18,423 nucleotides of DNA, from NCBI GenBank assembly GCA_021399395.1, contig JAAFKJ010000040.1:1-18423 (forward strand), given 5' to 3'. Every line of letters starts with the position of its first letter. The stretch's first letter is position 1. Source of the stretch: Candidatus Heimdallarchaeota archaeon (lineage in GTDB: Archaea > Asgardarchaeota > Heimdallarchaeia > Heimdallarchaeales > Heimdallarchaeaceae). The translations under genes and the position numbers were made by a program. The notes below the pieces were generated by a model. It did not search any database. It saw nothing but the letters and a program-made list of their open reading frames with translations, and had not been told where the DNA came from. Below, piece by piece: positions 2,970-17,057 of the stretch.

Positions 2970-4007
2970 ATGAATGTTATAATAGTAGGACCTGGTGCGA
3001 TTGGTTGTGGTGCTGCAGCAACTATAGGAGACAATGATCATACAGTTTATCTTCTCGGTAGAGAATATCACAAAGAACACTTTTCCAAAAAACCTGTGTT
3101 TTACAAAGTAGGAGATAAAACTATTTCTGCAAAAATAAATCCTATAATTATGGATGATTTAAAAGGTGGATTTATCAAACCTGATGCTATTTTAATTACT
3201 CTAAAAGCAAATAGTACAATGGCTTTGGTTAAGGAAATGGAAGAATATCTTCCCTCTGAAACACCACTAATTTCTCTCCAGAATGGTTTTATTGCACAGG
3301 ATATTTTTGATAACACTTCGTTCAATAATGTCTTTGCTTGTGTTGTTGGTTTCAATAGTGTTCTTGAGGATACTGGTGTAGCAATTCAAACGACTGATGG
3401 TGATATGATTGTTGGTAAAATTAAATCAGAAAATACTGAAAATACCAAAGATGATATTCCCGGATTTATTCTTGATCTTCTAAATCACTTAATTGAAACT
3501 AAAGTTTCTCAAAATATCATTAGTGATGTCTGGATGAAGGTAATGATCAACTCAACAATAAATCCAATCTGTGCAATAGGTAATCTAACATTAGGAGAAT
3601 TAGGAATCTACGAACCTGGGCTCAAACTAGGTTTATGGACCTGGAGAGAGCTTGTTCATGTTGTTGATGCTTTAAAACTGCGGTTGAATCCTTTCCAAGG
3701 GATCTTACATCCAGAAATGTTGTATGTTTATGACATTGTGAGCTATGGTATAGCAAGAATGGTAATATGGAAGATGACTGGAGATAACAAAGATGCGGTT
3801 GTATCCATGCTTCAAGATGTAAGGAGTGGGCGTTCAACAGAAATTGACTATCTTAATGGAAAAATCTTCGAAATAGGAAGCGAATATGGCATAGAAATGC
3901 CTGTAAATCAGATTCTGATAGATACCATAAAACAAATCGAAAGAGGAGAACTAAAACCCTCTAAAGGATTGCTTAACAAACTATATAGAGACTACATTAT
4001 GAAATGA
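2970..4007 (+). CDS. panE: Ketopantoate reductase (PanE/ApbA) family 2-oxoacid reductase
   Basis: N-terminal GPGAIG Rossmann motif, TLKA, SLQNG, catalytic WMKVMINSTIN, and SMLQDVRSGRSTEIDYLNG. GGAGTG RBS precedes ATG 2970. Family is secure, substrate is not. Confidence 0.85.
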   Translation: MNVIIVGPGAIGCGAAATIGDNDHTVYLLGREYHKEHFSKKPVFYKVGDKTISAKINPIIMDDLKGGFIKPDAILITLKANSTMALVKEMEEYLPSETPLISLQNGFIAQDIFDNTSFNNVFACVVGFNSVLEDTGVAIQTTDGDMIVGKIKSENTENTKDDIPGFILDLLNHLIETKVSQNIISDVWMKVMINSTINPICAIGNLTLGELGIYEPGLKLGLWTWRELVHVVDALKLRLNPFQGILHPEMLYVYDIVSYGIARMVIWKMTGDNKDAVVSMLQDVRSGRSTEIDYLNGKIFEIGSEYGIEMPVNQILIDTIKQIERGELKPSKGLLNKLYRDYIMK

Positions 4008-4020
4008 GTTATTCTCAACT

Positions 4021-4042
4021 CTCTTTTTCTTTTAGTTTTTAT
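4021..4042 (+). terminator. Oligo-T tract, probable archaeal terminator of the ior-panE operon
   Basis: CTCTTTTTCTTTTAGTTTTTAT begins 14 nt after the stop codon. Confidence 0.5.
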
Positions 4043-4132
4043 GTTGAAATCCGGATATATTTTTGAACAGATAGGTCACACTTAAAAATGACTTAATTAA
4101 AATGTATTACTAAGTGCTCAAAAGTGGTTAAA

Positions 4133-4456
4133 ATGAAAATCGCAGAACTTAAACCTGATTCAAATTTTGACGAAATAAAAGTAAGAATATTATCTAAACA
4201 AGGTCCTAGAGAAGTGAATGCCAAAGGCAGAATGATGCAAGTTTGGGATATTTTGGTAGTTGATGATACAGGTACTACAACTCTAACTCTCTGGGGTGCT
4301 ACAGCTGCTGACAACTACAAAGTAGGTCAAGTAATAACCATAAACGATGGTTGGTGTAAGCAGTTTATGGATAAAAAACAGATATCCTTAGGACGAGGAG
4401 GAAAAATCTTCCCTGCAGACGATGATTCAAGTATTCCGACTAAACCCCCAGAATAA
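4133..4456 (+). CDS. ssb: Single-OB-fold single-stranded DNA-binding protein (crenarchaeal SSB / hSSB1-like)
   Basis: KIAELKP...IKVRIL...VVDDTGTTTLTLWG...GQVITINDGWCKQFMDKKQISLGRGGKI matches the Sulfolobus SSB pattern, including the W, W and F base-stacking aromatics. No long acidic tail. Confidence 0.88.
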   Translation: MKIAELKPDSNFDEIKVRILSKQGPREVNAKGRMMQVWDILVVDDTGTTTLTLWGATAADNYKVGQVITINDGWCKQFMDKKQISLGRGGKIFPADDDSSIPTKPPE

Positions 4457-4529
4457 ATTTTCTATTGCTTCTTCAAAAACAATTATATTTCCTCTTTCTT
4501 TTTGTTTTCATATCAAATGAAGTGAAAGA

Positions 4530-5603
4530 ATGAGTCAGATTATAATTAAAAGCCCAAACCCAGATGTTATTTGGAATTCATGGAAGCAAAAAGCTTCAAG
4601 AAGAAATATCAAACTTGAAAAACACTACAAAACTAAAGGGGCGGTGTTCTCTTTAGATAACATTACAGCTGCTGAATATGTGAAAGCTGTAAACAAAGCA
4701 GTAATTGTGTTTTATGAAGAAATATACGAAGCGAAACCATCCTCAACCAACAAAGTAATCAAAAAAGGGAATGTGAGATCTCTTCAAAAAGAACAATTCT
4801 ACGAATTCAAAACGGTAGCTGTGAAATCAGAATGGAAAGGTCCTGAAGATGTCTCCTATTTGAATTCTATTCAACAGTACAGTTGTACAACTTGTAATGG
4901 TTCAGGTGCAATCACCTGCTCGAAATGTAATGGTAGAAAAATGATTACGTGCTCGAATTGTAAAGGTACAACTGTTGGTTGTAAAACCTGTAAATCAACA
5001 GGTAAAACCACCATTAAGATTTCTGTCATTGATCAACAGAACAACAAGATGAACGTTGAGCAGACAGTTCCTTGTCCTTCTTGTTCTGGTTCAAAGCGAA
5101 TAGAATGTTATAAGTGCGGTGGTGTAGGGAAGGTCCCATGTGATTCCTGTCAAGCAGAAGGTTCGAAGCGATGCAAAGATTGTAGCGGTCATGGGGTCTT
5201 ATTCAAGTGGGTTGTTCAACCAGTTCCTTTCAAAGCAGAACGAAATGCTACTCCTGTTATTCTATCCACTACCAAACTCTCTGGATTTGAAAAAGAGATG
5301 GGTGCAGAAATTCAAAATGCAATAGAGAGAGTTGAAGGGATCGCACTCAGAGATCCATACAATGAATTGAATCAACGATTTATTGAACCTAGTTTGGGTT
5401 ATTATTCTAAAGAAGTAGATAAGATTGTTCACGAAACTCAAAAAAGCTGGAGAAATGCAGAGAAGAATAAGGATTATACAGTTAAAAAACCAGTTTATCT
5501 CTTCCCTCTAATAGTATTAGATTGTGAAACTGCTAAGGGAAAGAAATTTCAAGTATTTTCTATAGGTTCAGAAAGAGGATATCTGGTGTTTGGTAAGATT
5601 TAG
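4530..5603 (+). CDS. SSUH2-like protein with eight DnaJ-type CxxCxGxG zinc-binding repeats (no J-domain)
   Basis: CxxC motifs CTTC, CSKC, CSNC, CKTC, CPSC, CYKC, CDSC, CKDC. No HPD J-domain. C-terminus VYLFPLIVLDCETAKGKKFQVFSIGSERG resembles the SSUH2 C-terminus as I recall it. Confidence 0.7.
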   Translation: MSQIIIKSPNPDVIWNSWKQKASRRNIKLEKHYKTKGAVFSLDNITAAEYVKAVNKAVIVFYEEIYEAKPSSTNKVIKKGNVRSLQKEQFYEFKTVAVKSEWKGPEDVSYLNSIQQYSCTTCNGSGAITCSKCNGRKMITCSNCKGTTVGCKTCKSTGKTTIKISVIDQQNNKMNVEQTVPCPSCSGSKRIECYKCGGVGKVPCDSCQAEGSKRCKDCSGHGVLFKWVVQPVPFKAERNATPVILSTTKLSGFEKEMGAEIQNAIERVEGIALRDPYNELNQRFIEPSLGYYSKEVDKIVHETQKSWRNAEKNKDYTVKKPVYLFPLIVLDCETAKGKKFQVFSIGSERGYLVFGKI

Positions 5604-8718: not shown

Positions 8719-9567
8719 ATGAAAGCTTTCATTTCTGTTGATTTGGAGGGAATGCCTTACGTCGTTATTCCTGGTCATTTGAATCTTAAAGGATCACTTT
8801 ATCCTGAAGCTAGAAAAATAGCTACCCAAATTACTCTTTTTGTAACTGAAGAACTTCATAAGAATGGTTTTGATAAAATAATAGTAGCTGATAGCCATGG
8901 ACCAAAGATAAATCTACTAGTTGATGATTTACCAGAATGTGTTGAAATTGTGAGGGGTGGTCCTAGACCTATAAGCATGGTAGCTGGTTCAGAAGGTTGT
9001 GATGTAGGATTATTCCTGGGTTATCATGCTAAATTTGGAACAATAAATGCAACTTTTGATCATACATACAGCGGAGGAAGTGTAAACAAACTCGTCTTAA
9101 ATGGAATTGAAGTGAGTGAATATCTTATGAATTCTTATACAATTGGAGAGTTTGGTATACCTTCAATATTGGTTGCAGGAGATAAGCAATTGATAGAAGA
9201 TGATGTTAAACCATACACTCCATGGGTCGAATCTGTAACATTAAAAGAATCTCTTAGCAGATTTTCAGCAAAGAGTCCAAGCATGAAACTAATTGAAAGA
9301 GAACTACGCGCAGCTACTAATAAAGCAGTGATAAATGTCAATGAAAATCTTGTAAAGCCCCTTGTTCTTGAAAAGCCGATTAATGTCTCTCTAACACTTC
9401 GTGACACACATCAAACTGATGCTGTTTCTTATCTACCTTTTATTTCTAGAAAAGATGCCCTTACTGTAGAATATGTCTCTAAAAATATGGTTGAAGCTTA
9501 TAAAACATTTCAAGCAATTATGTTCATTTCTTCGGCTTCCTCTTCAATACTTCAAAATCTCAAATAA
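8719..9567 (+). CDS. dppA: D-aminopeptidase, peptidase family M55
   Basis: MKAFISVDLEG (DxE zinc ligands), DSHG, GYHA, FDHT, EVSE and VAGD motifs. Confidence 0.93.
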   Translation: MKAFISVDLEGMPYVVIPGHLNLKGSLYPEARKIATQITLFVTEELHKNGFDKIIVADSHGPKINLLVDDLPECVEIVRGGPRPISMVAGSEGCDVGLFLGYHAKFGTINATFDHTYSGGSVNKLVLNGIEVSEYLMNSYTIGEFGIPSILVAGDKQLIEDDVKPYTPWVESVTLKESLSRFSAKSPSMKLIERELRAATNKAVINVNENLVKPLVLEKPINVSLTLRDTHQTDAVSYLPFISRKDALTVEYVSKNMVEAYKTFQAIMFISSASSSILQNLK

Positions 9568-9659: not shown

Positions 9660-10910
9660 TTGGGCAAAAGAAAAGTACCTACTTTTATTTTCATTGCTAT
9701 TCTTGTTGTATCAATAATAGTTCTTGATGTAGTTAGACAAGCTCAATTTAGAGGAGATAAAGATGAAATTGTTCTAAGTGTTCTCTATACAAGTGAAAAG
9801 AAAGGATGGATAAATTCAATAGCACCTGAATTCCCTGAATGGTTTTCTGAAAGGAATCTTGGGATGAGTGTTCGATTAGAATTTGAAGTATTAGGAACTC
9901 GAACGTCAATGCTTTCTATCCTATCAGGTGAAAGTAAACCCGTAGTTTGGAGCCCAGCCGCATCAGTGTGGGTACCACTTTTTGACTGGTCTTGGGAGAA
10001 AAAGTTTGGAAACCATATTATTGATTTTGATCAAGTAAAACCATTGGTTGCTTCACCAATTATCCTGGGAACTTGGGAGAGTTACAGAGATGAAAATAAT
10101 TTCACTAAATGGGCAGACCTATACGATTTAGCTAATTCTGAACTTAAACTTGCACACACTTCTGCTCAAGAATCAAATTCTGGATATATGGCTGTCCTTC
10201 TCGAAATCACAGCTGCCAGTGGGAAGGAACCAGATCAAATAACCATGACAGATTTGCAGAATACTACGATCCATGATTGGATGGAAAAGGTAGAATCGAC
10301 AGCTGTGCTTTATGGGTCTTCTACTGGTTTTCTAGCAAAACAAGCAGTTCAGTTAGGACCTTCAGGTCTAAATGTAATGATACTTTATGAGAATTTAATC
10401 ATCGAAACTGCTAAAGATGGAGAAGCCTTTGCCAAATGGGGAGAAAATATTGTAGCAGTGTATCCTGAAGAAGGAACACTGTGGAGCGATCACCCGTTTG
10501 TTATTCTTAATGCTTCATGGGTTACTCCTGAGGAACAATTTGCTGCGACAGAATTTGAAACCTTCTTGTTAAGTAAAGAAACTCAAAAACAAGCAATACC
10601 CTTCGGTTTCAGACCTGGTAATGAAACAATAGTAAATGATACTGATATTATAGCAGAAATGGAACAAGTATTCAAATCTGAAAATGGTGTTGCTCTAGAC
10701 ATTACCATACCTAAATTCAGCGTTCCAACAGATGGAGAAGTGTTGGACAGAATTCCTGATGTATGGTTGAAAACGAGAGCGACAACTCTTGAAAAAGACG
10801 AGGATGCTGAATATTTTCAACTAGGTTATGAATTTCTGACAGTGGTTCCAATAGTATTCGGCGCTCTTCTTATTCTAATTATTTTCAAAAGAAAGAGGAG
10901 GGTAAAATAG
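9660..10910 (+). CDS. ABC transporter substrate-binding protein (vWA-associated SBP type) with N- and C-terminal TM helices
   Basis: N-terminal TM segment. Motifs SEKK, PVVWSPAASVW, LVASPII, LAHT..ESNSG, YGSSTGFL, YENLII, VYPEEGTLWSDHPF, GFRP. C-terminal TM followed by KRKRR. Sequons NFT, NTT, NAS, NET, NDT. Confidence 0.8.
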   Translation: MGKRKVPTFIFIAILVVSIIVLDVVRQAQFRGDKDEIVLSVLYTSEKKGWINSIAPEFPEWFSERNLGMSVRLEFEVLGTRTSMLSILSGESKPVVWSPAASVWVPLFDWSWEKKFGNHIIDFDQVKPLVASPIILGTWESYRDENNFTKWADLYDLANSELKLAHTSAQESNSGYMAVLLEITAASGKEPDQITMTDLQNTTIHDWMEKVESTAVLYGSSTGFLAKQAVQLGPSGLNVMILYENLIIETAKDGEAFAKWGENIVAVYPEEGTLWSDHPFVILNASWVTPEEQFAATEFETFLLSKETQKQAIPFGFRPGNETIVNDTDIIAEMEQVFKSENGVALDITIPKFSVPTDGEVLDRIPDVWLKTRATTLEKDEDAEYFQLGYEFLTVVPIVFGALLILIIFKRKRRVK

Positions 10911-12640
10911 TGGATTTAGAAGATAAGAAATTGGATGCAGAAGTTAAGATGAGACGAACGCTTCTAGCAGCTGAAAGATGGTTATCTAAGAAAGGTGTTC
11001 TGTCTGTTGGGAAAGTGTTTACAGTTGGAATATTCATTCTTCTAGTTCTTGGACCTATTCTTTATCTTCTTCTTCAAATAATAATCAGCTGGGATGACAT
11101 CAATTCTACTGTTTTCAATGACCCTATCTTGGGGAATGAAGCTTTTCTTATGATGATGAGGTCGATAGGTCTCTCTCTTAAGATTGCAGCTATTGTAACA
11201 GTTTTTGATATAATAGTTGGAGTACCAATTGCTTGGATTTTAGCAAGATATAACTTCAGAGGGAAGAATATTTTGGACACTTTAGTAGATATGCCAATGG
11301 CCGTCCCAACCAGTGCGTTAGGTTTCTCAATTTACCTGTTCTGGGGAACAAATAATGGGATTTCGAAATTATTTAATTCTGAAGTGGGGTTGGTTTCCCA
11401 AGGAACACTTTTGATAATATTAGCTCATGTAGCGTTTACTTTTCCCTATGTAACCAGATCGATAAAAGGTATAATCTCTGATTTAGATTTGAATCTAGAA
11501 AAAGCAGGAAGAACCCTAGGAGCCTCTCCATTTACCATAGCTAGAATGATCTCTCTACCATTAGTTAAAGAAGGATTACTAGCAGGAATAGTTTTAGCTT
11601 TTACTCGATCACTTGGAGAAACTGGAGCTACTCTCATTGTGAGTGGTGTTTATCAAACGGCACCCGTAGTTATCGTGAGTTGGATGAAAGGTCTCAAGAT
11701 TCCAACCACAGCTTTCTTAGCATTTATGCTTATAATAATCAGTTTAACATTGCTGACTTTGGTTCGATTATTTGCACGAAAAGTTGGTTTACCTTGGAAT
11801 AAAGTATTTCCAAGATTTGAAAGAAAACTTAGCTCAAAACCCGTTACCCGAACCCGTGATGGAGTTTCTCTCTTCTTGTTTCTCATTTTTGTTTTTGTTC
11901 CCGCTCTCTTTGTGATTGTATTCCTATTCCAATGGTGGGGTGGTTCTCCCTTCTCAGGTGATCCACAAGCTGGAATGATCTACCAGGTGTTCCAAGCTCC
12001 AGATCAGAAAATTACGGATATTACGAATGCGTTGGTAACGTCTATAGAAATAGCTCTAATTGTAACTTTGATCAATGTAATCATAGCTACACCAATGGCT
12101 TTCTTCATTTCAAAAATGAAAAATAAGAAATTGAAAGGATTCCTTGACTTGTTAATAGACATACCTCTTGTCATTCCAAGTTCTGCTTTAGGTTTTAGTA
12201 TTTTCTTCCTGTGGGGATCAAATGGGATGCATATTCTTTCTCCCGGGTTTATGATGATTATTGTAGCTCATGTTTCTTTCACGTATTCTTATTGTGTCAG
12301 GCCTCTGATAGGGTCATTTGATGCCATACCTACGATGTATGATGAAGCAGCAACATCTTTTGGGGCATCGAAGTTCACTGCTTTTAGAAAAGTAACATTT
12401 CCTTTCTTGAAGAGTGGATTGATCGCAGCTGCTATCATGACCTTCACAAGATCCATGAGTGAAACAGGTGCAACAATTATATGTATGGGCGTAGAAAGAA
12501 CTATCCCTGTTCTATTAGTTGATTTCTTCGAAGCTTCTACATTTCCAGCTGCTGCTTTCGCTGCGACGATATTAATTGTCATTTCATTCTTACTGTTACT
12601 GTTACTAAGATTCTTTTCAAGGAGGAAGAGAAATGAGTGA
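10910..12640 (+). CDS. ABC importer permease with two fused ModB/CysT/CysW-like domains
   Basis: Two homologous halves: DMPMAVPTSALG / DIPLVIPSSALG; EAA loops LEKAGRTLGAS / YDEAATSFGAS; FTRSLGETGAT / FTRSMSETGAT. GTG start overlaps the upstream TAG, with a GAGGAGG RBS. Confidence 0.9.
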   Translation: MDLEDKKLDAEVKMRRTLLAAERWLSKKGVLSVGKVFTVGIFILLVLGPILYLLLQIIISWDDINSTVFNDPILGNEAFLMMMRSIGLSLKIAAIVTVFDIIVGVPIAWILARYNFRGKNILDTLVDMPMAVPTSALGFSIYLFWGTNNGISKLFNSEVGLVSQGTLLIILAHVAFTFPYVTRSIKGIISDLDLNLEKAGRTLGASPFTIARMISLPLVKEGLLAGIVLAFTRSLGETGATLIVSGVYQTAPVVIVSWMKGLKIPTTAFLAFMLIIISLTLLTLVRLFARKVGLPWNKVFPRFERKLSSKPVTRTRDGVSLFLFLIFVFVPALFVIVFLFQWWGGSPFSGDPQAGMIYQVFQAPDQKITDITNALVTSIEIALIVTLINVIIATPMAFFISKMKNKKLKGFLDLLIDIPLVIPSSALGFSIFFLWGSNGMHILSPGFMMIIVAHVSFTYSYCVRPLIGSFDAIPTMYDEAATSFGASKFTAFRKVTFPFLKSGLIAAAIMTFTRSMSETGATIICMGVERTIPVLLVDFFEASTFPAAAFAATILIVISFLLLLLLRFFSRRKRNE

Positions 12641-13745
12641 TATTCGATTCCAACATGTGACTAAGATTTTTGGGAGAAAAGTAGAAGCTGTAAAGGATCT
12701 TAGTTTCATAATTAATGATGGTGAATACGTCTCTTTGATTGGTCCTTCTGGATGCGGAAAAACAACTGCATTACGATTATTGGCAGGTACTATCTTACCT
12801 ACGAAAGGACAGATATTTTTTGATGATAAACACATGGAAAATGTTTCGATTCAAGATAGGAATATTGGTTTTGTATTCCAACATTTTGCAATCTTTCCAC
12901 ATATGACTGTTTGGGAAAATGTTGCTTATGGACCAACAGTACGAGGGAGACACAAGAAGGATATAGAATCGTTAGTAGAAAATGCTCTCAAATCTGTCCA
13001 AATAAGCTCTAAAGCTGAGCTTTACCCACCCACATTATCTGCACCAGATTGGCAAAAAACTGCTCTAGCAAGAGTCTTAGCATCTGAAGCTCGCATTCTT
13101 CTACTAGATGAACCATTAGGCGCACTTGATCAAAAAATCAGAGAAGAGTTCCAAGTTTTTCTCAGGGATCTGGTCAAACGTGAAAAACTAACTGCAATAC
13201 ATGTAACTCATGATCAAGCTGAGGCTCTAACTATAAGTGATAAAGTAGCAGTCATGAATAAGGGTGAGCTAATTCAACTAGGTTCTCCAACTGATTTGAT
13301 ATATAATCCGAATCATATTTTCACTTCGTTTTTTGTTGGTGAATCAGATTTCCTGGAAGGTGTTGTCATAAATGATGAGGAAAAAGAATCAGAAGTGAAG
13401 ATAGGTCAATCGATAATTAGAACTCATAATACTGGTGTTTCTAAAGGAAAAAGAGTAGCAGTAGCTGTAAGAAGAGAATTTTTCCAACTGGAGAAAATCA
13501 CCAAAGATGCGGACAAGATTACTAATAATTACATAAACGGTACAATAATTCAAGACCAATTTTTAGGTCTCTTGAGACGAGTTAGAGTTAGACTAGAAAA
13601 TCAACAAATAATTGAAGCGAAGATACATGCAAAGTATCCTATTCATTTCAATGAAAATGAAAGTGTGAAAGTGGGTTTTGATTCATCTCTTAGTAGATGT
13701 TTTGATTATCCTAAAGAAGGAATTATAGCTGCTTTGGAGATGTGA
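12633..13745 (+). CDS. ABC ATPase 1 (CysA/PotA/MalK-like, C-terminal TOBE) with a degenerate signature motif
   Basis: Walker A GPSGCGKT, Q-loop VFQ, Walker B LLLDEP and H-loop VTHD are canonical. The signature reads LSAPD instead of LSGGQ. Confidence 0.92.
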   Translation: MSDIRFQHVTKIFGRKVEAVKDLSFIINDGEYVSLIGPSGCGKTTALRLLAGTILPTKGQIFFDDKHMENVSIQDRNIGFVFQHFAIFPHMTVWENVAYGPTVRGRHKKDIESLVENALKSVQISSKAELYPPTLSAPDWQKTALARVLASEARILLLDEPLGALDQKIREEFQVFLRDLVKREKLTAIHVTHDQAEALTISDKVAVMNKGELIQLGSPTDLIYNPNHIFTSFFVGESDFLEGVVINDEEKESEVKIGQSIIRTHNTGVSKGKRVAVAVRREFFQLEKITKDADKITNNYINGTIIQDQFLGLLRRVRVRLENQQIIEAKIHAKYPIHFNENESVKVGFDSSLSRCFDYPKEGIIAALEM

Positions 13746-13749
13746 TGAT

Positions 13750-14844
13750 ATGGTTAAAGTCGAATTGAAAGATGTAACAAAATTCTACGGAAAGATACGG
13801 GGAGTTGAGAATATCGATCTTTCAATTGATGATGGTGAATATCTTGCCGTTTTGGGGCCAACAGGGTCAGGGAAAACATCTACAATGTACTTATTGGCAG
13901 GTTTGCTCAAACCTTCATCTGGTTCCATTCACTTTGACCAAACCGATGTTACAAAAACACCTGCAGAGGATAGGGAAGTGGGTTTTGTGTTTGAAGAATA
14001 CAATCTCTTTCCACGTATGCTGGTGGAGGAAAATGTTCTATTTGGTCCAGTGGTCAAAGATTTGGACATACCTGAATCTAAACTGATTGCAAAAGAACTG
14101 TTTACTTTGCTCAATATAGCTGGAAAAGAGAAAAACCTTCCAGATGAAATCAGCGGGGGACAAAAACAAAGAGTAGCCCTGGCAAGAGCTATAGTTTCAA
14201 ATGCCAAACTCTTGGTGATGGATGATCCACTTAGAGCTCTAGATGCAAAAATTAGAGAAATACTGCAAGTTGAACTTCGTAAGCTAGTAAAGGATCTTGG
14301 CTTAACATGTATTCATGCTACTCATGATACTCATGAAGCAATGAGAGTAGCAGATAGAATAGCGGTTTTCAAAGATGGAAAAATAGTTCAAATCGGCTCT
14401 CCAGAAGAGGTTTACAATCATCCAAATTCATTATATGTCGCTGATTTTCTAGGTGAGAATACTACAATAAAGGGAAAAATAAGTGAGAAGAAAAACGATT
14501 GCTACTTCAAAACAGAAGATGGATTAGAGTTTAAAATAGAGACGAGTTTGAATGATGGAGAAGAAGCGATAGCTCTGGTACCTTCTGAATTGTTGGATGT
14601 TTTTGATGTAAGTGAAAGAAAAAATATCAATTATGACAATATCCTAGAGGGAAAAGTCCTCAAATCGAAGTGTATTGGAGAATTCAATGAAATAGAAATC
14701 AAGCTCAATAATACTATTTTCAAAGCTAAAGATCTAATCGGGAAGAATATCCCGTTAAAGAAAGGTAGTACAGTATTGATTGCTACCGATAAAGATGATT
14801 ACAGAATATTTCCACAAAAAGAGGAGATAGAAAATGAAAAATGA
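13750..14844 (+). CDS. ABC ATPase 2 (CysA/PotA/MalK-like, C-terminal TOBE) with degenerate Walker B and Q-loop
   Basis: Walker A GPTGSGKT, signature ISGGQKQR and H-loop ATHD are intact. The Q-loop is VFE (Q to E) and Walker B is VMDDP (catalytic E to D). Confidence 0.92.
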   Translation: MVKVELKDVTKFYGKIRGVENIDLSIDDGEYLAVLGPTGSGKTSTMYLLAGLLKPSSGSIHFDQTDVTKTPAEDREVGFVFEEYNLFPRMLVEENVLFGPVVKDLDIPESKLIAKELFTLLNIAGKEKNLPDEISGGQKQRVALARAIVSNAKLLVMDDPLRALDAKIREILQVELRKLVKDLGLTCIHATHDTHEAMRVADRIAVFKDGKIVQIGSPEEVYNHPNSLYVADFLGENTTIKGKISEKKNDCYFKTEDGLEFKIETSLNDGEEAIALVPSELLDVFDVSERKNINYDNILEGKVLKSKCIGEFNEIEIKLNNTIFKAKDLIGKNIPLKKGSTVLIATDKDDYRIFPQKEEIENEK

Positions 14845-14917
14845 AAAGAAATCAGAGAAAATTAATAAACGGTCTCACATAGTTAAGACTATAGATTCCT
14901 TTGTTGAGGGGTTTTAA
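14834..14917 (+). CDS. Possible 27-aa bridging ORF MKNEKKSEKINKRSHIVKTIDSFVEGF
   Basis: GAGGAG at 14821-14826 sits 7 nt before ATG 14834. The ORF overlaps the ATPase 2 stop and ends 1 nt before the DUF47 ATG. Confidence 0.3.
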   Translation: MKNEKKSEKINKRSHIVKTIDSFVEGF

Positions 14918-14918
14918 A

Positions 14919-15587
14919 ATGAGTAATAGAGAACTTAAACAGTGGTTAAGTCGTCGTCGTGAATCAAGAATCTTGAAGCGTATCAGAGATCACTTGATTT
15001 ATGTTGACAGTTGTATAGTCAAAGGTAAGGATTTCTACAAATTCTGGCTGGAAAAGGATGAGGAAGCATCTAAGAACATGTACGAGATAATTTTTCAAGA
15101 GGAAAAAACAGCTGACGGTGTTGAAGCTGAAATCATTGATATGCTTTCAGAAGGTAAAACACCAGAATATGTTAGAGCAGATCTACTGAGTTTCATCCGA
15201 ACAGCTGATAAAGCTGCTGGGAATGCAAAAAGAGGAGTCAAAAATCTACTTGTACTCATTAAACATGAATTCCCTAAAGGTATCAAAGATTTAATTGGTA
15301 AAGTCTTTGATCTTCTCGCAGAAGAAATTGATGCTTTCATAGAAGTCTTTGATGCTATGTTCAAAGTTGAACATGAAGAGCTAATCGGAAACATCGCTAA
15401 AGTTGATAACATTGAATCTCAAATAGATGATTTGTATGCAGACCTAAAATATGAAATTGCTTATAATTCAGTAGATGTTCCTGCAGGTGCATTAATCATT
15501 CTAGATCATGCAATAAAAGATCTTGAAGATGTATCGGATTTAGTGGAAGATTGTGCAGATATGATAAGAAGTATAGTTCTACTTTAA
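14919..15587 (+). CDS. DUF47 / PhoU-like phosphate transport regulator (TIGR00153-like)
   Basis: All-helical with duplicated E-x3-D motifs (EEKTADGVE...RADLLSFIRTADK; IESQIDDLY...LEDVSDLVEDCAD). GAGGGG RBS precedes ATG 14919. Confidence 0.88.
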   Translation: MSNRELKQWLSRRRESRILKRIRDHLIYVDSCIVKGKDFYKFWLEKDEEASKNMYEIIFQEEKTADGVEAEIIDMLSEGKTPEYVRADLLSFIRTADKAAGNAKRGVKNLLVLIKHEFPKGIKDLIGKVFDLLAEEIDAFIEVFDAMFKVEHEELIGNIAKVDNIESQIDDLYADLKYEIAYNSVDVPAGALIILDHAIKDLEDVSDLVEDCADMIRSIVLL

Positions 15588-15659: not shown

Positions 15660-17057
15660 ATGGGTCAGAAGGAAACAAGTAGTGTGTTAATTGATAGAGT
15701 TTTAGATACGATTATTAAGAAATCCCTTAAAGAAATTAAGGATTTTATCCTTCAAAATTGGCATCCTGAGACATTAGAGAAGAGAGGAGTTAAATCTATT
15801 TTAGATTCTCTACATCACATTAAAAGAGAACTTGATGGCGTTGAAATTTATCAAACTTTCAAAGAATCGCCTGAGAAAGAATCTGCAATATTATTGAATC
15901 CAGAAACAGAAGATTGGATTAAATTCTCTATAATGATATCTGAAGAGGAGCCATTTTTAGTTAAGGGTCTAGGCTTAAGACCTACGTCACCTCCAAAAGA
16001 TATTGGTGTTGAAGTAAAAGAAGAGGATTTAGCATCTGCAATAGGAGATTCTATCAAAGGTTTGCTAGATAAAAATCTCTTCTCAGGTGTTGTTATTGTA
16101 GCTAAGGAAAATAAAATAGTCTTTCAGTTGGCACATGGCTATTCAAATGTAGATTCAACCATTCAACTAAATCTTGATACTAAATTCAACCTTGGTTCTA
16201 TGAATAAGATGTTTACATCTCTTGCGATTGCAAAACATATAGAAGAAGGTCATTTTTCTTTTGATAGTACAGTTGCTGAGTTACTTCCTGAAGCACAGAT
16301 TGATCAATCAGAGCAAATAAAAGTACATCATCTACTTACACATTCATCTGGATTAGGTAGTTTTTTCTCTGCTGAATATATGAAAAAGAAGGATCAATAT
16401 GTAGAAGTAAAAGACCTCCTACCCTTAATTGAAAAAGAACAACTATCTTTCTCACCAGGATCTAGTTTTCAATACAGCAATTCTGGTTTTGAGGTACTTG
16501 GAAATATCATTGAAAGAGTTAGTGGAATGACCTATTATGATTATGTAAGAGAAAACATTTTTCTTCCATTAGATATGAACAATACCGATAGTTACAGACT
16601 TGATGATGATCTAGAGAACCTTGCTATTGGATATACTAAACATCTGGGGATGAATCAACCTCCTTCTAAAGAATGGGTAGCAAATACGAAAATGGCAAGA
16701 ATCAAGGGAAGTGCAGCAGGAGGAGGATATTCCTCAGCACATGATTTGTTAACATTTAGCCAAGCCTTATTCTCCTATAAGATACTTAATGAAGATTTAA
16801 CAAAAGAAGTATTGAGTGGTAAAATACGCTTGGAACCAGGGAGTGATGATATTATGTACGGTTATGGTTTTGGTATTCATCAATTCGGAAATATAACTAG
16901 ATATGGTCACAACGGAGGTGCACCAGGTATTAACAGTTTTTTTGGAGTATATCTGCCAATCAATTACACTGTCATAGTACTCTCAAATTATGACCCTCCT
17001 TCGGCTGAAAGAATAGGTAATAAAATCCACTCTATATTATCCAAAATGAAAAAATGA
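15660..17057 (+). CDS. Serine hydrolase of the beta-lactamase class C / D-peptidase family with an extra N-terminal domain
   Basis: SxxK (LGSMNK), LLTHSSG, YxN (YSN), IFLPLDM and GHNGG motifs. About 120 aa N-terminal extension; no signal peptide. Confidence 0.9.
   Translation: MGQKETSSVLIDRVLDTIIKKSLKEIKDFILQNWHPETLEKRGVKSILDSLHHIKRELDGVEIYQTFKESPEKESAILLNPETEDWIKFSIMISEEEPFLVKGLGLRPTSPPKDIGVEVKEEDLASAIGDSIKGLLDKNLFSGVVIVAKENKIVFQLAHGYSNVDSTIQLNLDTKFNLGSMNKMFTSLAIAKHIEEGHFSFDSTVAELLPEAQIDQSEQIKVHHLLTHSSGLGSFFSAEYMKKKDQYVEVKDLLPLIEKEQLSFSPGSSFQYSNSGFEVLGNIIERVSGMTYYDYVRENIFLPLDMNNTDSYRLDDDLENLAIGYTKHLGMNQPPSKEWVANTKMARIKGSAAGGGYSSAHDLLTFSQALFSYKILNEDLTKEVLSGKIRLEPGSDDIMYGYGFGIHQFGNITRYGHNGGAPGINSFFGVYLPINYTVIVLSNYDPPSAERIGNKIHSILSKMKK

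Follow-up and report, generated by a model that had tools for sequence, protein, structure and literature searches.

A predicted importer operon in a Candidatus Heimdallarchaeota genome appears to join two unlike ATPases into a single motor in which a consensus ATP site is paired with a degenerate one. The operon lies in an 18,423-nucleotide stretch of contig JAAFKJ010000040.1, which was analysed as a whole and is called the window here. It contains a BPD_transp_1 permease, a substrate-binding protein (SBP) and two ATPases, A1 and A2, encoded together in one operon, which is the composition of a type I binding-protein-dependent ATP-binding cassette (ABC) importer. A1 carries an intact catalytic half-site and a degenerate signature motif. 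A2 carries an intact signature and a degenerate catalytic half-site. We propose that the motor of this importer is probably an obligate A1/A2 heterodimer in which one ATP site is consensus and the other is degenerate. In the sequences compared here, this consensus/degenerate design of a type I importer of the PotA/CysA class is fixed across the Asgard archaea.

In ABC dimers, each ATP site is formed by the Walker A, Walker B, Q-loop and H-loop motifs of one nucleotide-binding domain (NBD) together with the signature motif of the other NBD. The two ATPases of the window and their motifs are as follows.

12633-13745, + strand: ATPase 1 (A1), 370 aa; intact catalytic half-site, degenerate signature
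12741-12764, + strand: A1 Walker A, GPSGCGKT; canonical
12870-12884, + strand: A1 Q-loop, FVFQH; canonical Gln
13035-13049, + strand: A1 signature, LSAPD instead of LSGGQ; would contribute to composite site 2
13098-13115, + strand: A1 Walker B, LLLDEP; catalytic Glu intact (site 1)
13200-13214, + strand: A1 H-loop, HVTHD; canonical
13750-14844, + strand: ATPase 2 (A2), 364 aa; intact signature, degenerate catalytic half-site
13855-13878, + strand: A2 Walker A, GPTGSGKT; intact
13984-13998, + strand: A2 Q-loop, FVFEE; Glu at the Gln position, 13993-13995 (site 2)
14149-14163, + strand: A2 signature, ISGGQ; intact, would complete consensus site 1
14212-14229, + strand: A2 Walker B, LVMDDP; Asp-Asp at 14221-14226, Asp replacing the catalytic Glu (site 2)
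14314-14328, + strand: A2 H-loop, HATHD; His intact

Given the pairing rule of ABC dimers, a single composite site takes all deviations in the window, which leaves the other fully consensus. The two NBDs are not identical. The catalytic deviations are found in A2 and the signature deviation in A1, and both belong to the same composite site. The initial annotation had already noted the deviant motifs, and every coordinate that it gave was exact when the motifs were placed again on the two open reading frames (ORFs). Neither frame contains stops.

Both proteins match the ABC_tran domain (PF00005) strongly, with E 8e-31 (107.9 bits) for A1 and E 2.3e-31 (109.6 bits) for A2, against a cut-off of 25. 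They share 32% identity over 362 residues and have the same domain layout, and A2 is a full-length paralogue. The C-terminal domain of A1 is weakly TOBE-like (TOBE_2, E 0.0013, below the cut-off), and that of A2 has no Pfam match. Neither ATPase reaches the cut-off of the NCBIfam equivalogs PotA, CysA, PhnT2, WtpC, MalK or UgpC. The best equivalog for both is TIGR03265, with 281.9 bits for A1 and 270.9 bits for A2 against a cut-off of 457.7. In a cluster look-up, the window proteins were unnamed singletons, and the PhoU_div (DUF47) protein encoded downstream of A2 had no record.

In the mechanism that we propose, the motor would be a heterodimer of two anciently duplicated PotA/CysA/MalK-like ATPases. 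Site 1 would consist of the Walker A, Q-loop, Walker B and H-loop of A1 and the ISGGQ signature of A2; it would be fully consensus, and hydrolysis at this site would drive transport. Site 2 would consist of the Walker A of A2, its Q-loop with Glu, its Asp-Asp Walker B and its H-loop, together with LSAPD of A1. This second site would bind ATP, with slow hydrolysis at most, and would serve as a latch or sensor in the manner of heterodimeric exporters. We infer from the sequences that A1 and A2 form a physical heterodimer, that neither would be active as a homodimer, that site 2 binds ATP without hydrolysis, and that one ATP is used per transport cycle.

Conservation of the asymmetric pair

Orthologues were collected in a scan that covered one genome per prokaryotic species. 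It returned 21 loci with an A1 orthologue at 62-89% identity, and the next matches reached at most 44%. By their titles, nearly all of these loci belong to Candidatus Heimdallarchaeota or Heimdallarchaeum, with one Thorarchaeota and three entries titled 'uncultured archaeon'. The order permease-A1-A2 is kept in 21/21, and the SBP gene lies upstream wherever the contig extends that far. The PhoU_div gene is found downstream in 19 of the 21; in the remaining loci, L005 and L019, the contig stops short of it. All 21 close orthologues carry LSAP[DE] in A1, and FVFEE and MDDP in A2. When the window was compared with seven close loci, dN/dS was 0.04-0.14 for A1 (computable for six of the seven) and 0.07-0.12 for A2 (five of the seven), values that are rough since synonymous sites are saturated. 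Both the A1 and A2 genes are under purifying selection.

These observations bear on whether the deviations could be a sequencing or assembly artefact, or the recent decay of a redundant copy. The window does come from a metagenome-assembled genome, with 81.8% completeness. However, contigs from two runs of an independent study cover the three deviant places without any difference, the deviations recur in 21/21 orthologues, dN/dS is well below 1, and the frames are free of stops. The probability of such an origin is accordingly negligible. Sequencing error and pseudogene decay are excluded by orthologue conservation, the pattern of the 46 pairs described below, dN/dS and the independent contigs. 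The initial annotation had argued for selection rather than decay, and both lineage-specific decay and sequencing error are excluded by the several independent kinds of change in A2, at least four changes of the Walker B Glu on the tree, and dN/dS of about 0.04-0.14.

The degenerate signature of A1 extends well beyond the close orthologues. In an exhaustive HMMER search with A1, the nearest 50%-cluster representatives carry LSAPE, LDAAD, LSTPD, LHAPD, LGAPG, LSIPE, LSVPD and FGNPG signatures, and most of the 150 matches listed carry LSGGQ or LSGGM. Within the phylum of the window, 147 of 400 genomes, from 48 of 85 genera, have a homologue of the fused permease at E <=1e-40. From these places, 40 were taken, a non-random choice that was made to span family codes. 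The order SBP-permease-A1-A2 is present in 26 of the 40 fetched loci. Another 8/40, all of them Asgard loci, have two near-consensus ATPases in reverse order. A split permease with no ATPase within the fetched stretch is seen in 4/40, and one locus stops at a contig edge. The four split-permease loci (L185, L186, L194 and L197) come from one family of the phylum, and their permease consists of two genes behind the SBP gene. No ATPase gene was found in the 6.5-8 kb fetched for each of them.

The motifs were aligned for 46 pairs, made up of the pair in the window, those of the 21 close loci and 24 out of the 26 distant ones, and covering 15 family codes of the phylum; the rows are kin and do not count as independent events. 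Two pairs were omitted, L171 with a masked A1 signature stretch, and L192 with a cut permease that was dropped by the filter and with motifs that fit the pattern. In A1, the Walker A Lys, the Q-loop Gln, the Walker B Asp-Glu and the H-loop His are each present in 46/46 rows. Its signature is LSAPD in 19 rows, LSAPE in nine, FGNPG in five, and LNTPE and WGNGD in three each. LNAAD, VAAAD, LDAAD, LTAPQ, LSVPD, LSDPE and FANPG occur in one row each. SGG is found in the A1 signature of none of the 46. The A2 signature reads xSGGx in 46/46.

The catalytic half-site of A2 shows the opposite picture. Its Q-loop residue is never Gln in the 46 rows (Glu in 44, Ala in two). Walker B ends in Asp-Asp in 24 rows, Asp-Glu in 18 and Asp-Gln in four. 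The H-loop residue is His in 28, Asn in 13 and Gln in five. The Walker A Lys is kept in 43 rows and replaced in three (GxGPS). Every A2 row thus combines an intact SGG with at least one broken catalytic residue, and the signature is broken in A1 alone in 46/46 pairs. The initial annotation had read the A1 Walker motifs and the A2 signature as a consensus site with the substitutions gathered on site 2, and this pattern of motifs holds in every pair of the alignment. It had also suggested that, if the asymmetry is real, LSAPD-like changes and the changes to Asp-Asp and from Gln to Glu should co-occur in orthologous operons. The outcome is as predicted, and stronger: in 46/46 pairs, A1 alone has a broken signature and A2 alone has broken catalytic residues.

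That the A2 signature is so strictly kept can be understood only if it completes the catalytic site of A1. The loss of catalytic residues in A2, repeated and varied between lineages, is expected if selection for hydrolysis is relaxed at site 2. Nucleotide binding at site 2 is probably retained in most lineages, since the Walker A Lys is kept in 43/46 rows and the A-loop aromatic residue in 38/46; in A1, this aromatic residue is present in 46/46. The three rows without this Lys are L160 (4579-5631), L161 (2325-3380, - strand) and L162 (4450-5496), which belong to one family. The A2 of these loci has lost the Walker A Lys (GxGPS versus GxGKT/S) and additionally has Asp-Gln in Walker B and Glu in the Q-loop. 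The partner A1 signatures are LNAAD, VAAAD or LDAAD. In these three loci, nucleotide binding at site 2 may be gone altogether, judging from the motifs.

The D-loops of the two ATPases are asymmetric as well (13116-13130 in A1 and 14230-14244 in A2 of the window). A1 mostly has Gly before ALD or SLD, with LGALD in 27 and LGSLD in ten of the 46 rows. A2 mostly has Arg or Lys at this place, with LRALD in 24 rows, LKALD in six, and YRALD and FKALD in three each. One genome, G127, has two complete asymmetric operons (L174 and L175), with the A1 signatures LSVPD and LSDPE.

Several points weigh against the proposed motor. The Walker B Glu is kept in 18 of the 46 A2 sequences, and in these lineages the argument for a degenerate site draws on the signature of the partner, on the Glu of the Q-loop and on Asn or Gln in the H-loop. 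An Asp in place of the catalytic Glu may leave residual activity. All genomes compared are metagenome-assembled. One of the 40 fetched loci, L168, has A1 without A2 in the fetched stretch. In this locus (3410-4768), the A1 frame past about residue 340 enters an unrelated Arg/Gly-rich sequence with much higher G+C, and the locus is likely to be disrupted by an insertion or misassembly.

Some of these points would suit a heterodimer with two unequal but competent sites, in which the deviations are tolerated variants and two ATP are used per cycle. The A2 of the window retains Walker A and the H-loop His, Asp is chemically near Glu, and the sister group described below has LSGGM or LSGGA signatures beside otherwise consensus sites. 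Against this, the deviations gather on one composite site in all pairs, and in most rows neither Gly of the A1 signature is left (LSAPD, FGNPG and others). Furthermore, several independent types of loss in A2, including that of the Walker A Lys in three loci, are hard to square with selected hydrolysis. We therefore regard two competent sites as unlikely.

It is also conceivable that an A1 homodimer is the motor, and that A2 is an accessory or regulatory pseudo-ATPase which does not occupy the NBD positions of the permease. The catalytic defects do sit in A2, and the PhoU_div regulator in the operon shows that accessory parts exist. However, an A1 homodimer would carry the degenerate signature at both of its sites, and SGG is absent from A1 throughout the alignment. 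The strictly kept A2 signature also speaks against such an arrangement, as does the relation of A2 to A1, with which this full-length paralogue shares its layout and co-evolves. This makes an A1 homodimer highly improbable, and the A1/A2 heterodimer with one consensus site is the reading that we prefer.

Origin of the pair and its symmetric relatives

The history of the two ATPases was followed in a quick IQ-TREE analysis of 80 rows, with eight canonical representatives as the outgroup. The paired ATPases all group in a single clade (support 99). Within it, the A1 type is one clade of 28 rows (support 99). The A2 type is a clade of 28 rows (support 93), and its neighbour in the tree is the first ATPase of the loci with reverse order. 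Branching in the A1 subtree largely matches that in the A2 subtree. On the 27 A2 rows, the minimum number of changes is four for the Walker B Glu, two for the H-loop, and one each for Walker A and the Q-loop.

Symmetric relatives are found outside the Asgard archaea. The permease has a match at E <=1e-70 in 53 of 301 sampled genomes of the phylum of a Bathyarchaeia genome, and 20 of these 53 places, mostly top-ranked, were examined. One canonical ATPase, with GPSGCGKTT, LSGGM and the full set of catalytic residues, is present in 8/20. Two near-consensus ATPases are present in another 8/20, and no adjacent ATPase in 4/20. When these loci were added in a FastTree analysis of 109 rows, the sister-locus ATPases all fell inside the family clade (support 100). 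The sister loci, which come from the Bathyarchaeia phylum, Thermoplasmata and some Asgard lineages, share with the window a homologous fused permease (33-40% identity), an SBP and PhoU_div. Unlike the window with its degenerate pair, they have a single canonical ATPase or a near-consensus pair in reverse order.

The trees place the A1/A2 duplication before the split from the near-consensus sister group. Incipient changes are visible in this group. One Gly of the signature is lost (LSRGA, LSSGA) in three of the eight A1-equivalents of the near-consensus Asgard pairs, and the H-loop has Asn in three of the eight A2-equivalents of the Bathyarchaeia-phylum sample. By their motifs, these changes share the polarity of the window pair.

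Within this one importer family, the loci may form a natural evolutionary series that leads from a single symmetric ATPase to a near-consensus pair, then to a pair with one degenerate site, and finally to the loss of the Walker A Lys. It is possible, although we hold it as a tentative idea, that such a series produced Asgard importers that run on one ATP per cycle, with the dead site kept as an ATP-occupied latch or energy sensor that is possibly read by PhoU_div. If this is true, a one-ATP importer in Asgard archaea may reflect adaptation to sediments, where these archaea are extremely short of energy.

A second and independent asymmetric pair was seen in L046 (5998-8192), a locus titled uncultured Candidatus Bathyarchaeia archaeon, where two ATPase genes are adjacent. 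In the FastTree analysis, these two pair with each other as closest relatives and fall outside the family clade. The first combines the signature MTQRE with an intact catalytic half-site, whereas YSGGE in the second is accompanied by Glu in the Q-loop. Scans with generic Walker and signature words gave ordinary ATPases among the matches listed and were uninformative on the range of the family; the archaeal loci L046, L080 and L081, which came from one of these scans and from the orthologue scan, were informative.

Operon layout, substrate and the PhoU_div partner

All genes of the operon lie on the + strand, in the order SBP, permease, A1, A2 and PhoU_div. The genes that accompany the two ATPases are as follows.

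9660..10910, + strand: SBP, 416 aa; ORF with an N-terminal signal or anchor helix and a C-terminal membrane helix
10910..12640, + strand: fused two-domain permease, 576 aa; two BPD_transp_1 halves (two PF00528 stretches)
14901-15587, + strand: PhoU_div (DUF47) protein, 228 aa from a TTG start; PF01865, E 6.2e-19

The junctions between the transporter genes are tight. The SBP stop is overlapped by the permease start, permease and A1 overlap by 8 bases, and 4 bases separate the A1 stop from the A2 start. Since the genes overlap or abut, co-translation of A1 and A2 in equal amounts fits this layout. One flank of the operon is a Peptidase_M55 D-aminopeptidase homologue (8719-9567 of the window, E 4.7e-79). 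The other is a 465-aa Beta-lactamase-family (serine hydrolase) protein (15660-17057, E 1.1e-59).

The substrate can be approached through the permease and the SBP. The permease matches PF00528 in two stretches with 111.8 bits, and among NCBIfam models those for molybdate, tungstate and sulfate permeases score highest. It scores 229 bits against the molybdate-type models TIGR01581 (cut-off 210.3) and 217.7 bits against TIGR02141 (cut-off 182.6), values that exceed the cut-offs only through summing over the two fused halves; they hint at an oxyanion substrate and do not assign the protein to these families. It is below the cut-offs of the WtpB, CysT and CysW models. In the SBP, SBP_bac_11 (E 9e-8) and SBP_bac_8 match weakly, both above the Pfam cut-offs, and no NCBIfam model matches. 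The AF2 model of the SBP has a pLDDT of 89.7. Its best Foldseek matches are the sulfate-binding proteins 5um2 and 1sbp, followed by 4r6y, ModA, AfuA and PotD, at 11-18% identity. This group comprises sulfate binders and then phosphonate, molybdate, sugar-phosphate, iron and polyamine binders, and indicates no specific ligand. A protein atlas search with the SBP returned unnamed SBP_bac_11 clusters of Asgard and Chloroflexota origin, and then sulfate-binding proteins. A small oxyanion is at most a tentative guess for the substrate. The conserved presence of PhoU_div next to the transporter is a hint that anions are taken up and that a PhoU-like protein regulates the system.

PhoU_div is a conserved partner of the operon and a candidate regulator. 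Its gene is found near the transporter in most related loci, whether these are close orthologues, more distant Asgard loci or relatives with a single ATPase, and it is present twice in L195. In related loci it is sometimes found upstream or on the opposite strand. The association with the transporter predates the degenerate site. An alternative ATG start lies 18 bases into the frame, behind GAGGGG, and is likelier than the TTG. A search of PhoU_div against solved structures gave no match at E up to 0.01.

Comparison with known systems

The closest solved relatives of A1 are PotA, archaeal MalK-like proteins, CysA, MsmX, MalK and ModC (E 5e-65 to 3e-52). PotA (8y5f, 8zx1), the Pyrococcus MalK-like protein (1v43/1vci), MalK, CysA (1z47) and ModC (3d31) have the same layout of an NBD followed by a C-terminal domain. 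Their systems also resemble that of the window in pairing a BPD_transp_1 permease with a binding protein. ATPases of the PotA/MalK/CysA/ModC type work as homodimers encoded by a single gene, both of their sites being consensus, whereas the window encodes two paralogues at 32% identity with complementary defects. The view in the initial annotation that this class is normally a symmetric homodimer agrees with the closest solved PotA, MalK-like, CysA and ModC chains and with the single canonical ATPase of sister loci. No description of a consensus/degenerate pair in a PotA/CysA/MalK-type importer was found in full-text literature searches, whose coverage leaves most subscription journals outside.

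Importers with unequal ATP sites are known in other families. The mycobacterial peptide importer OppABCD, with its fused OppD, is reported to have unequal ATP sites. The CUT2 sugar and nucleoside importers, such as RbsA and NupO, have one degenerate ATP site and are alike in this respect. Unlike the window pair, they have NBDs fused in one polypeptide, an ATPase of another subfamily, another permease type, and a second Walker A that has lost its Lys. The window instead has two separate genes of the PotA/CysA type, with ORFs of 370 and 364 aa that contain a single NBD each. A genome-wide survey reports a degenerate ATP site for the fused importer ATPases RbsA and NupO (PMC11466899).

The number of ATP molecules used per substrate by binding-protein-dependent importers is an old question, as is whether both sites must fire. 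It has so far been approached via engineered single-site mutants. The family of the window would provide importers that are single-site by nature, alongside symmetric ones closely related to them, and thus a matched comparison of stoichiometry and of the role of a non-hydrolytic site. One review cites the work on HisP in this context (PMC3971661).

The closest parallel to the proposed motor is seen in heterodimeric ABC exporters and their kin. TM287/288, TAP1/2, BmrCD, MRP1 and CFTR follow the same composite-site logic, in which the catalytic Glu of one NBD is replaced, the signature of its partner is degenerate, and Walker A is retained. Reviews describe degenerate sites as frequent in exporters (PMC3971661; PMC7756269), and one of them holds the change of the Walker B Glu to Asp responsible for the inactive site of TM287/288 (PMC3971661). 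Unlike the window system, heterodimeric exporters have a different membrane fold, NBDs fused to the membrane domains, and no binding protein. The asymmetry of the window pair arose independently of the exporters. A design associated with exporters would thus have appeared separately in a PotA/CysA-type importer and been kept across a whole archaeal phylum.

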